Part shown: in pieces, positions 10,061-40,294 of the stretch
Layout of the letters: each line of letters opens with the position of its first letter
How positions within the stretch are numbered: the first letter of the stretch is position 1
Source of the DNA: Escherichia phage EK8
Sequence record: PQ805430.1
Strand: one strand, 5' to 3'
Length of the DNA: 64,000 nucleotides
The notes under the pieces: generated by a model
Database searches by the model: none
Seen by the model: only the letters and a program-made list of their open reading frames with translations
What the model was told of the DNA's origin: nothing
Program-made: the position numbers and the translations under genes

Positions 10061-12145
10061 TTACTTCGCCAGGGTTTCAATCATCGCAGCAACTTCGTCG
10101 CTGACGCCGAGTTTAGCCCAGGATTTCTTGGCCGAACGCTTAATAGCCAGTGCGTCACGCGCAATGCTTTCGTTGATGGTGCTGCCTTTCAGCAGAGCTT
10201 CCATCTGAGCTTTCGGTGAACCTGCTTTCGCTGGCTTAGCCTTTTTCTCAGTCAGGCCGTCAAAGTCATCGACTTTTTTAACGGCGACCGGAGGCTTAGC
10301 AGCATCAGCCGCTTCGGTAACAACTTTACCGATATCGTCGGACAGCCCAAGAGCAGTCCAGCTTTTCTTACTGGCTTTCTTAAACAGAGCCAGTTCGAGA
10401 GCTTTATTGCCCGCACCAGTGCTGGTCGTTGCAGACTTAAACTCAGCATACAGACGCTGAGCAGTCTGAGCTTTGGTTTCACGTTTCACGTCGTCACCTT
10501 TCGGTTTAACCGGGGTCAGGTTTTCAACAGAGTTGGCCTTAACCGGTTCCGGTTTCAGATCCGTTGCTTTCACTTCCGGGGAAGCTGGTGCAACCGGTAC
10601 ATGCTTTTCATCGCCAATCGGATCGATGTTGGTGTTACGGATATCACCTTCGACCAATTCGGCTACCGTGGTATCTACGCCGTCCAGATCGGTGATGGTC
10701 AGTTTGGAACCTTTCTGACCGCCAATCTGTACAGTCTGGATTACCGGGATGTGCTTACCGCGCAGGACTGCGTTGAGGATTTCAGCACCACCGTCGATAG
10801 ATGACAGCTTGCCACCACGGTTAACGTGATTGGCCTGCTTATCGTTCAGCAGAGCGACGATGTGATACCCGGCCACACGCATTTTATTGTTGTTGTACTC
10901 TGGCACCGCGATAACGTCTTCCGGGGCTACTTTACCAACAATGGTAAATTCACCAGAGAAGCCGCTCAGGTAGCTGAGTGCAGCAACATGCAGACCGTTG
11001 GAACAGTCCTGACGACGATCCGGGTCAACCAGAGATTCATCCATAAAGACACGGGAACCCACTTTCTGTTTGACGTTACGGGTGTGACAGTCAACCATGA
11101 TGCCCGCATCTTTTTCGGATTTAACACCGGATGCAGTCAGGCGTTTGTAGATCACGATGGAGCCATCGTCAGCAATCGGCAGATCGCCGTGCTTCATGAA
11201 CTTCATCAGGTCTTCAACGCTGAAACGGCGTTTGTGAACCACCGTACCCAGGCGTTCCAGGAATTTCTGGAAGCCAGTGAAGTCTTTCAGATCCGTGGCT
11301 GCTTTAACTTGTGCAGCCAGGTGCTGAGCTTCCGGGATGATGGTACGGCCACCGTTGGTAACCGCCACTACCGTTTCGTCTTCGGTCAGCTTTTCGTGGA
11401 ACTTCGGATCGGATGCAGGTACTGCTTCCTTCTCCAGAATGTCCAGTCGAGCATTGGCCTCAGCGATTTTCTGCTCATTGGTTTGAACCGGAGCAACCGG
11501 AGCCGGAGCATTGGCAGGCTTGTACGTTACCACACCGCCCAGGCGAGCCAGTTCGGTTACGAACAGCTTAACCCGTGCATCGTTAACATCATACGCCACG
11601 AGAACCGGCAGGCTGCTGGATACCAGGTCATGGGCTTCTTTCAGCCCAGCCCCGGCGACAGCACGGATAGCTTTGATAACAGCAACCTTCTGCCCCTGCG
11701 GGTATGCTTCCAGCATCACGTCATAGTTACCCGGAGGGATAACCACGTCGTCGAACTCAGTCTCTACCGACTCGCCGGGGATAACCCCCAGCTTGATCGG
11801 ATTGACATAAGCAGACGGTGCCGGTTGGGTAACCGCAGGCTGCTCAGGTTCATCACTGAACCAGTCAGCAATACGTTTTTTCGCCACTTTGAAGAAGCGA
11901 ACAACACCATTACTGGCTTTCTCTGCTTCATCAAATTCCGGCTGATGGACAACCGGTATAACCGGTGCCAGGGAGACTTCCACTGCACGAGGGGGAACCT
12001 CGGACAGCGGAGCCTTCACCGTTTCCATAATGCGGGTGACACGAGGATCACCCTGCTTTACGGTTACGGTATCACCGTCCTCGGTAAAGAGGACGATGTT
12101 CGCAGAGTCAACTGACACTGCGATCACCACAACTGAATTTTTCAT
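10061..12145 (-). CDS. rIIB: rIIB-like protein with N-terminal extension and C-terminal tandem repeats
   Basis: central DCSNGLHVAALSYL...VIAVPEYNNNKMRVAGYHIV resembles T4 rIIB core as recalled; adjacent to rIIA-like gene with 4-nt overlap; residues ~140-209 resemble ribosomal L7/L12 CTD; two ~35-aa repeats (KKSW..LG.SD) at C-terminus. Confidence 0.6.
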   Translation of the reverse strand: MKNSVVVIAVSVDSANIVLFTEDGDTVTVKQGDPRVTRIMETVKAPLSEVPPRAVEVSLAPVIPVVHQPEFDEAEKASNGVVRFFKVAKKRIADWFSDEPEQPAVTQPAPSAYVNPIKLGVIPGESVETEFDDVVIPPGNYDVMLEAYPQGQKVAVIKAIRAVAGAGLKEAHDLVSSSLPVLVAYDVNDARVKLFVTELARLGGVVTYKPANAPAPVAPVQTNEQKIAEANARLDILEKEAVPASDPKFHEKLTEDETVVAVTNGGRTIIPEAQHLAAQVKAATDLKDFTGFQKFLERLGTVVHKRRFSVEDLMKFMKHGDLPIADDGSIVIYKRLTASGVKSEKDAGIMVDCHTRNVKQKVGSRVFMDESLVDPDRRQDCSNGLHVAALSYLSGFSGEFTIVGKVAPEDVIAVPEYNNNKMRVAGYHIVALLNDKQANHVNRGGKLSSIDGGAEILNAVLRGKHIPVIQTVQIGGQKGSKLTITDLDGVDTTVAELVEGDIRNTNIDPIGDEKHVPVAPASPEVKATDLKPEPVKANSVENLTPVKPKGDDVKRETKAQTAQRLYAEFKSATTSTGAGNKALELALFKKASKKSWTALGLSDDIGKVVTEAADAAKPPVAVKKVDDFDGLTEKKAKPAKAGSPKAQMEALLKGSTINESIARDALAIKRSAKKSWAKLGVSDEVAAMIETLAK

Positions 12146-14580
12146 TTTTTATTTCCGTTTTTCATCGCGATTAAAACGAGGGATCGGAGAGCAGCTTTTC
12201 TCTCCGGGTACATGTCGGCAATCTCACGGACTTGCTCAATCGTTAATTTACGAATCACAATATCCGACTTGATGGCCTTAATTTGCTTGATCCAAGCAAA
12301 CTCGGTCAGGTGCAAGGTTTCAACAACCTTACACTGCTCGTACTCTTCTTCGGTCAAGACCTCATCGGTGTACAGGCGATAGAGGCTGCACTCGTCGATA
12401 GCTTTGATTACAGCTTCCAAATCCTTACGGAATGTTAGCTTCTTCAAGCCAGGGACTTTAATGTCCAGCTTCTCCAGCATACGCAATGTGCCAGATTCTA
12501 TGTTATGGGCAGTGGACAGATCCGATTGACGTTCTTTGGTCAGGTAGGTCTTCATCTCTTTGCTGAGATAAATCTCCAGCATAGGTTTGATGAAATACTG
12601 ATCTACCGGAACCGCACCACGGCGTGCTGCCATGTTACGCTCGATACCGTTACGGACTACCACTGCGTTATCCAGCAGATTGTCATCCAGCATGGATGGC
12701 GTGCAGAAACGGCCCAGCTTATTGTGCTTCACATCGTCGTACTCAACGTAGAACAGCGGAGCGTCGGTATTACCTTTCCACTCTTTAGCTGTCTTGATTT
12801 TCGAACGTGTGAACACCATAACGCCTTTGTCGCCAGTGTCCACCATGTTACGGATGGGCACCAGGCCATTTGCGATTACTGGTTTGGCTTCAGCAAGTTT
12901 TTTACGCTGCTTTTTGTACTTCTCGACCGGATCCCATTCATGATTCAGGGTCAGGTCAACGACAGTCCAGCCAGCGTCAGTGAAGGCTTTGATCGGTGCA
13001 ACCTTTGCATCCTTCTTCATGCCGATGTGGTAAATGTAATAGTTCTTACGGAAGTCAGAGCCATTAAAACCAGGCCACTGCTCGCAGGAATACTCTACTT
13101 CTTTCAGGCGGGTAGTGATGAACACCACACGCTGAGTCAGGCAGTAGAGATTGCTCAGGATTTCCATGTCCTTGTGGTACAGGTGGAAATTCTTTGCGGT
13201 CAGCGAACGATAGCCTTTGAACTGAACCACACGAAGTGATCTCAGATCCAGGTCTTTATGCTCAAAGACTTTGGCTACCGGCTTCCAGATGAACTGGTAA
13301 TGGAAACGACGTAACGCATCGTTGCGGCTGGTATTTTTAGCCACGTTAAGGGCACCCAGCAGGGCACTTTCGATGCTCGGATGAATATTCCGCTCCGCGA
13401 GGAACTTCTTATACGAAGCCAGTTCACAATTTTTGAAGTATTTACGCCAGTGCTCAACGAGATCTTTACCCAGAGGTGAGGTCAGATAACGCTGTTGCAG
13501 ATCGGAAAAGCCACGGATGAAGTGATACCAGTTTTTATCCTGCAAACGGTTGGCATTGACATCCCGCAGTTCCTCGCCAACTTTCATGGCTGTTACCGGA
13601 ATGCTGGCACGGATATCTTTTTCGACACGCTTGGTCAGGTTAACGCAGAGGTCAACGATACCGTTCTCCGTCATCTTCTGGCTTGACAGTGCCTCACGGC
13701 CCGGTGTTAAAGCCAGAGTGTCAGGAGCAGCCTGAACGAGCATACGACGGATGTTCACGATACGCATGAAACGACGGATGGTGTCCAGGGCAGGACGAGT
13801 TGCCGGGGTATCCAGTGCCGGATAAACGACGTTACCATAACGGATAAACACTGCGTGCTCACCCATATAATCGTCATACCAGCGGTTCGAGTCCATGTGA
13901 TAAGAACCTGGCTCGAAGGACATACCCAGTGTTTCCAGACGGCCAGTGGCACCACGGTAATAACCGGATACTTCCAGATCCACTTTCATTTCGCCATGCA
14001 GCGTGATGTAACGGATGTACTGGAGGAACTCGTACTCATCCCCATCTTCGACACGGATACGCACTTCCAGACCGGTTTCAGTGGTCGGAGCGTCCATGAT
14101 TTTGGTAATACCCGGACGGCCACCAGATTCTATTGAGGATTTAGTTATGTTGTATACCGTCTTAGTTCCCTGGTTATACGAGATAACCCGGAAGCTGTCG
14201 GTATACGCGAATGGTGATTTACAGCCCAGGCCAAAGCCACCAGTCACATTGCTGTTGGTCTTTTTGGTGGACGCACCATAGGTGCCGTACACTTCACCCA
14301 TTTTGTCATGGGGAATGCCTGTACCGAAGTCACGGAAGATGAGATCACCTTCTTCGTTGATGGATACTTTAACGGCTGTGTCTTTCAGGCCAGCCTCAAT
14401 ATGGGCATCCCAGGAGTTGCAGAGCGTTTCACGCACTACAGCTAATTTCTGGTTTGAATAGAGGTTGGCTGACAAAATCTGGAAGAACGCCGGATCGTCA
14501 GAGATACCGAAGTTGATGGTCTGGTTGGCACCGCCCAGAGTTGCGGAAGACGCCAGTTGTGTTGAGTCGGCTACCTGCAT
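12142..14580 (-). CDS. rIIA: rIIA-like protein (GHKL-type ATPase fold)
   Basis: FFQILSANLYSNQKLAVVRE, DFGTGIP and GGFGLGCKSPFAYTDSF match T4 rIIA N-terminal GHKL-like motifs as recalled. Confidence 0.75.
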   Translation of the reverse strand: MQVADSTQLASSATLGGANQTINFGISDDPAFFQILSANLYSNQKLAVVRETLCNSWDAHIEAGLKDTAVKVSINEEGDLIFRDFGTGIPHDKMGEVYGTYGASTKKTNSNVTGGFGLGCKSPFAYTDSFRVISYNQGTKTVYNITKSSIESGGRPGITKIMDAPTTETGLEVRIRVEDGDEYEFLQYIRYITLHGEMKVDLEVSGYYRGATGRLETLGMSFEPGSYHMDSNRWYDDYMGEHAVFIRYGNVVYPALDTPATRPALDTIRRFMRIVNIRRMLVQAAPDTLALTPGREALSSQKMTENGIVDLCVNLTKRVEKDIRASIPVTAMKVGEELRDVNANRLQDKNWYHFIRGFSDLQQRYLTSPLGKDLVEHWRKYFKNCELASYKKFLAERNIHPSIESALLGALNVAKNTSRNDALRRFHYQFIWKPVAKVFEHKDLDLRSLRVVQFKGYRSLTAKNFHLYHKDMEILSNLYCLTQRVVFITTRLKEVEYSCEQWPGFNGSDFRKNYYIYHIGMKKDAKVAPIKAFTDAGWTVVDLTLNHEWDPVEKYKKQRKKLAEAKPVIANGLVPIRNMVDTGDKGVMVFTRSKIKTAKEWKGNTDAPLFYVEYDDVKHNKLGRFCTPSMLDDNLLDNAVVVRNGIERNMAARRGAVPVDQYFIKPMLEIYLSKEMKTYLTKERQSDLSTAHNIESGTLRMLEKLDIKVPGLKKLTFRKDLEAVIKAIDECSLYRLYTDEVLTEEEYEQCKVVETLHLTEFAWIKQIKAIKSDIVIRKLTIEQVREIADMYPERKAALRSLVLIAMKNGNKK

Positions 14581-39745: not shown

Positions 39746-40294
39746 TCAAGCCTGGTTTGGAAGAAGTTGAGAAAAATCTGGTTCGGTGAAAGTCACCATG
39801 TTTTTCAGGAACTTCCCTTCCGGGTAGAATTTACCGTTCAGTTTGATATCACGCTTAACCTTAATGCACATAGTCGGGTAGTTACCGTGCAGATACAGGT
39901 CGTCAGGCTGGAAGCCCAGATCATAGTAATAAGCCAGGGCTTTAATCTTGTCGCCTTCGCTGCTAATGAACTTAGACATGTTAGATTCATGCACCAGGTC
40001 ATAGCAGGAGTTACCATCGAAACCAGCCACATGAGCTACTCCGTCGTTAACGGTGGTCAGGTCACCCTGTGCATCCAGGATACCGGGCATATCGATACTG
40101 GTTTCATCCGTATCGCCATTCAGATCCCAGACTACCTTCATACCAGGGTGTGCAGCTTCGACCATTTCGATAGCTTCCTCTAAACAAAGCATTGCCTGTT
40201 TACGGATAGCCTTAACGTTAGGGTTGTTCAGATCGCCTTTCGCGTTACCAAATGCTAAATTAAGTGCAGTAACTTTTTCGAAAGTAGTTTTCAT
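39746..40294 (-). CDS. possible MazG/HisE-like nucleotide pyrophosphohydrolase
   Basis: 182 aa; helical Glu-rich LCLEEAIEMVEA resembles EExxE metal-binding motif. Confidence 0.4.
   Translation of the reverse strand: MKTTFEKVTALNLAFGNAKGDLNNPNVKAIRKQAMLCLEEAIEMVEAAHPGMKVVWDLNGDTDETSIDMPGILDAQGDLTTVNDGVAHVAGFDGNSCYDLVHESNMSKFISSEGDKIKALAYYYDLGFQPDDLYLHGNYPTMCIKVKRDIKLNGKFYPEGKFLKNMVTFTEPDFSQLLPNQA

Follow-up and report, generated by a model that had tools for sequence, protein, structure and literature searches.

A bL12 C-terminal-domain homologue between disordered linkers in the rIIB-like protein of the N4-like Escherichia phage EK8

The window analysed here is a 64,000-nucleotide stretch of Escherichia phage EK8 (PQ805430.1), an N4-like phage (Schitoviridae, Cbunavirus-related) that represents a separate lineage with at most about 79% nucleotide identity to any record of the phage collection. 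Its minus strand carries the gene for a 694-residue rIIB-like protein (positions 10061-12145; PHROG 2886, E = 5e-188), directly downstream of the gene for its partner, an 812-residue rIIA-like protein (12142-14580, minus strand; PHROG 2979, E = 1e-222) whose N-terminus shows a weak GHKL-ATPase signature (HATPase_c, E = 0.0099). The TGA stop codon of rIIA and the ATG start codon of rIIB overlap as ATGA at 12142-12145, and the same rIIA-rIIB order is found in N4, KP8, CB4, Kc283, Nepra, and Ea9-2. Four further rIIB PHROGs, including PHROG 609, 3803, and 36818, match residues 284-439, and near-identical rIIB homologues carry both PF26926 (Phage_T4_rIIB) and PF00542 (Ribosomal_L12); proteins 97% identical to EK8 rIIB are present in metagenome assemblies. 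Judged by its sequence the protein is an rIIB homologue. The rII proteins constitute a counter-defence module (PMC11879866; PMC10312443), which in N4 and T4 has been shown to be needed to overcome RexAB-type exclusion and to be dispensable otherwise (PMC11879866).

The rIIB-like protein consists of several modules, all encoded on the minus strand. Residues 1-97 (11855-12145) form a mixed β/α N-terminal domain (full-length model, pLDDT about 80) with strands at residues 4-30 and 55-58 and helices at residues 35-47, 69-77, and 89-97, and the alignment columns show that it is conserved among N4-like rIIB proteins only. It is followed by linker 1 (residues 98-139, 11729-11854), a disordered, Pro/Ala/Glu-rich segment with pLDDT values <50 at residues 98-132 that varies in length and sequence among homologues. 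Residues 140-210 (11516-11728) constitute the bL12 C-terminal-domain (CTD) cassette with a β-α-α-β-α-β topology, the helices 4 and 5 of which (residues 153-175, KVAVIKAIRAVAGAGLKEAHDLV, 11621-11689) are the putative counterpart of the translational-GTPase face of bL12. A short linker 2 (residues 211-221, 11483-11515; pLDDT <50 at residues 213-219) leads to the rIIB core (residues 222-510, 10616-11482). Only part of this core, residues ~280-440, is common to T4-type rIIB, as tblastn matches in T4-like, Felix-O1-like, and other phages cover residues 280-440 only. The C-terminal helical modules (residues 556-694, 10064-10480) contain the motif 'KKSWxxLGxSD' at residues 589-604 and 669-684; in the full-length model the helices extend over residues 558-616 and 644-693 with a disordered stretch (619-637) between them, and among 43 homologues K594, W596, L599, and G600 are each at least 90% conserved, with G680 being invariant. 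Structure searches with the parts of rIIB outside the L12 cassette gave no solved relative.

The first-pass annotation had placed a segment resembling the L7/L12 CTD at 11519-11728, corresponding to N140-K209 of the rIIB-like protein, and translation of the minus strand gives the sequence quoted there exactly; the plus-strand reading of the same positions yields an unrelated peptide. The resemblance is far above chance. PF00542 matches the whole protein with E = 5e-11 and 43.1 bits and the excised segment with 46.7 bits, the gathering cut-off being 25.9, and the match spans profile positions 1-67 of 67. The E. coli sequence given there for comparison is correct according to both the alignment with 1ctf and the sequence printed in PMC12737465, and phmmer matched the E. 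coli L7/L12 CTD in the PDB (E = 2.5e-6). The fold of the cassette is predicted confidently by AlphaFold (pLDDT 94.7); superposed onto 1ctf of E. coli, the model agrees to 1.6 Å, with 40% identity. The two outcomes that would have refuted the first-pass annotation, a missing L12 profile match and a fold that does not superimpose, were thus both looked for and neither occurred. Residues 140-210 are truly homologous to the bL12 CTD, and the models depict the cassette as a module between disordered linkers that would act as a flexible tether. Elsewhere in the window, ORF 39746-40294 gave a further L12-like segment (E = 0.004), which was rejected as a chance 'VKAIRK' match.

Positions 66-70 and 80-85 in helices 4 and 5 of bL12 are the EF-G/EF4 binding site mapped by NMR (PMC3505967; PMC5887453). 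The EK8 cassette is identical to E. coli bL12 at 10 of these 11 positions; K84 is replaced by His in the clade of EK8. Among 69 distinct phage copies the mean identity at the GTPase-site positions is 0.78, with K70 being retained in 94%, R73 in 99%, E82 in 90%, and D85 in 91% (E. coli numbering), and within the cassette conservation is highest at positions 66-70 and 80-85, although part of it reflects the fold since helices 4 and 5 are the most conserved region of any L12 CTD and V66, I69, and L80 are partly structural. Mutational studies of L12 helix 4 were not found in the open-access literature.

The bL12 CTD (1ctf) and the EK8 cassette thus have a homologous fold and apparently the same GTPase-binding helices. 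Unlike bL12, however, the EK8 domain is internal to a 694-residue protein of the rII operon, has no N-terminal dimerisation/uL10-binding domain, and has K95 replaced. A Pfam search of rIIB for Ribosomal_L12_N gave no match at E ≤ 1, and the rIIB N-terminal domain was discarded as a candidate bL12 N-terminal domain as its predicted secondary structure and fold differ. Genuine phage records match E. coli bL12 only at residues about 55-100; the best tblastn matches for full-length E. coli bL12 in the phage collection are bacterial contaminant contigs and were set aside. K95, which in bL12 forms a salt bridge to D63 of uL11 (PMC3505967), is Ala in the EK8 cassette and is kept in 2 of the 69 phage cassettes, compared with 48 of 49 bacterial bL12 sequences. 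That the uL11 region in its entirety (92-95, 103-109) is poorly conserved was not accepted as an argument because true bL12 is also variable there (0.49 vs 0.68 elsewhere), so that K95 alone discriminates. As far as can be read from the sequence, the cassette lacks what gives bL12 its place in the ribosome, and the earlier suggestion of factor binding or mimicry is supported in that it fits this pattern.

The cassette is present in 73-79 of 120-130 homologues, and others lack it at the same site. Its dN/dS ratio (0.09-0.16) is as low as that of the rIIB core, demonstrating purifying selection of equal strength. The divergence of cassette and core is correlated (Mantel r = 0.85, 0/999 permutations), which argues for one old insertion followed by losses and led us to reject repeated independent capture into rIIB; the cassette is co-inherited with rIIB across N4-like phages of Enterobacterales. 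In profile and tblastn searches no cassette was found in rIIB of Pseudomonas, Achromobacter, and roseobacter N4-like phages or of T4. T4 RIIB has the core (~280-440), a partner rIIA, and its family name in common with EK8 rIIB, and since T4-type rIIB aligns to the core only in these searches, it has neither an N4-type N-terminal domain nor the L12 cassette, in agreement with the first-pass annotation. These surveys are based on profile searches, as tblastn with a 90-residue cassette query against phages retrieved phiA41/A38 only and was too insensitive. A 'GTP-binding domain' feature at an rIIB match of Klebsiella phage K60PH164C1 was disregarded, the gene being split into pseudo-CDS fragments.

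Natural loss and decay of the cassette were also observed. Pectobacterium phage CB1, a viable isolate, has lost it by a clean in-frame deletion of 264 nucleotides, whereas it is intact in CB4, the rest of the rIIB gene being 98.4% identical at the nucleotide level. N4 gp34 (696 residues) belongs to the same length class as EK8 rIIB, with the same module order and 41% identity. Its residues 151-223 are a homologue of the cassette that the cassette HMM matches (E = 3e-12) but that is invisible to Pfam. The GTPase face of this N4 copy is lost (K70 to H, GLKE to RTSE, D85 to N), with 2 of the 11 site residues retained as read from the alignment. The binding face of PMBT57 has decayed likewise, the fold signal being kept in both phages, and that of KP8 is intact. 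As N4 rII still counters RexAB (PMC11879866) despite the decayed copy, and as CB1 lost the cassette cleanly, the cassette is dispensable.

The fusion as such is not new, as it is annotated in databases and the domain was published in 2019; this answers the question of novelty that the first-pass annotation had left to a search. In GenBank the orthologue of phiA41/A38 (KY769270/KY083726) goes under the name 'ribosomal L7/L12 C-terminal domain protein', and public Pfam annotation already shows Ribosomal_L12 together with Phage_T4_rIIB. In Mizuno et al. 2019 the domain is described for a protein of Ea9-2 that was not called rIIB (PMC6375957); this 724-residue protein (AHI60108) is the rIIB orthologue. 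No paper discussing the rIIB-L12 fusion emerged from literature searches that combined rIIB with L12, PF00542, or 'ribosomal'. The orthologues of Pectobacterium phages phiA41/A38 and Erwinia phage Ea9-2 are encoded by the same gene directly after rIIA and have the same architecture and relative cassette position; they differ from EK8 rIIB by sequence divergence only, its identity being 64-69% to Cbunavirus and 38% to the Ea9-2 group. EK8 fits the group of larger phage polypeptides with an embedded PF00542, whose homologues sometimes lack it, described by Mizuno et al. 2019. Stand-alone L12-CTD genes of ~100 residues in N4-like roseophages and Ralstonia phages and the 418-residue protein of Salmonella phages FSL SP-058/076 (Mizuno et al. 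2019) are likewise phage-encoded, without the bL12 N-terminal domain and with conserved helices 4 and 5, but they differ from EK8 in host protein and genomic position; DSS3phi2 gp07 retains the helix 4-5 hairpin only.

Our preferred, albeit tentative, reading is that the tethered cassette binds translational GTPases off the ribosome, as an accessory of the rII counter-defence module. A mechanism off the ribosome is favoured because the features placing bL12 in the ribosome are missing, and the cassette has kept the surface by which bL12 catches translational GTPases (EF-Tu, EF-G, IF2, RF3, EF4). On its disordered tether of ~40 residues it might form weak, short-lived contacts with the G domains of translation factors, so that the factors would be held at or brought to the RIIA/RIIB counter-defence complex, or the cassette would compete for them locally with the ribosomal stalk. 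It would then be an add-on to rII that is useful in some hosts or conditions and lies outside the core rII mechanism. Factor binding by monomeric L12 CTD takes place only in the range of 0.1-0.4 mM, hence an effect would need a high factor concentration, which is plausible for EF-Tu, or RII oligomers. We know of no link of Rex or rII to translation factors. It is conceivable, but unlikely, that RIIA/RIIB of enterobacterial N4-like phages forms a 'pseudo-stalk' of long-tethered L12 CTDs that captures EF-Tu, EF-G, or IF2 away from ribosomes or soaks up host immune effectors that use the stalk; if true, this would connect the translation apparatus with the rII puzzle, now 70 years old, and establish a new class of anti-defence mimicry.

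Several other explanations were weighed against GTPase binding off the ribosome. Since some effectors gain access to the ribosome by first seizing the bL12 CTD, the tethered CTD might be a decoy that titrates stalk-captured immune effectors or toxins away from ribosomes, in keeping with the counter-defence role of rII (PMC11879866; PMC10312443) and with the patchy presence and absence among near-identical phages that is typical of arms-race accessories. The fold matches of the cassette include PDB 8phj, a complex of cA4-bound Cami1 and the 70S ribosome, Cami1 is cited as an L12-mediated interactor in bioRxiv 2023.04.14.536948, and the plant ribosome-inactivating protein (RIP) MAP, whose inhibition of E. 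coli ribosomes depends on L12, binds GST-L12-CTD (PMC12737465). However, the conserved face is not assignable to such effectors, the Pectobacterium, Kosakonia, and Erwinia hosts are not known to have one, and the conserved residues are exactly the housekeeping GTPase site, which makes a decoy rather improbable. Slightly more improbable still is a tether with which RIIB, and RIIA with it, would dock onto ribosomes at the GTPase-associated centre, either by direct contact or through a bound factor, and so monitor or modulate translation during infection. On the ribosome, the L12 CTD touches uL11 and the factor at the same time (PMC3505967), and a peptide of the 418-residue bL12-domain protein of FSL SP-076 was present in high-salt 70S fractions (Mizuno et al., PMC6375957), but the strep-tagged protein failed to pull down ribosomes (PMC6375957), isolated L12 CTD and L11 NTD do not interact in solution without a factor (PMC3505967), and 67 of the 69 phage cassettes no longer have K95, on which the uL11 contact depends.

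Incorporation of the phage domain into the host stalk, L10-(L12)n, as a substitute for the bL12 of the cell would accord with the general proposal for virus-encoded ribosomal proteins by Mizuno et al. 2019 and with the ready exchange of bL12 on ribosomes (PMC6375957). Such a replacement needs the bL12 N-terminal dimerisation/uL10-binding domain, none of which is detectable next to the differently predicted rIIB N-terminal fold, and the EK8 domain is internal to a 694-residue protein, so we consider it highly improbable. That the cassette is an inert relic or spacer, captured once and persisting without a binding function of its own, appears very doubtful: the viability of CB1 after clean loss, the decayed binding faces with kept fold signal in N4 and PMBT57, and the missing domain in rIIB of T4 and of Pseudomonas, Achromobacter, and roseobacter N4-like phages are all compatible with it, but dN/dS is as low as in the core and the surface charges K70, R73, E82, and D85 persist in copies of only ~29% identity, which is more than upkeep of the fold by itself accounts for. 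We give almost no credence to an adaptor that binds N-degrons or ClpA, as ClpS, which has the same fold, would; identity to the ClpS fold matches is 12-18%, as opposed to 30-40% to bL12, there is no Pfam ClpS match at E ≤ 1, and the conserved motif is the helix 4-5 signature of bL12.

The mechanism of the rII proteins has been a puzzle since the 1950s, and as no other part of rIIB resembles a solved structure, the cassette is the sole module with a concrete, testable biochemical prediction. If it is an off-ribosome binder, translational GTPases should be bound through K158, R161, E170, and D173, and nature provides controls in the pairs CB1 (deleted) and CB4 (intact) as well as N4 (decayed face) and KP8 (intact face). 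The impact is limited because in T4 and N4 the anti-Rex activity of rII needs no working cassette; what the cassette brings to light will more probably be a host-specific accessory role than the way rII works at its core. The EK8 fusion adds to the evidence for re-use of the L12 CTD off the ribosome, in phage proteins and in tandem CTD arrays. Such array proteins, found in genomes and metagenomes with 3-9 CTD matches per chain and lengths of 281-1066 residues, resemble EK8 rIIB in carrying non-ribosomal CTDs on linkers without the N-terminal domain and often without K95, but they are multivalent within one chain and their GTPase face is less conserved (0.60 vs 0.78). At least one of them is encoded on the chromosome of a bacterium.

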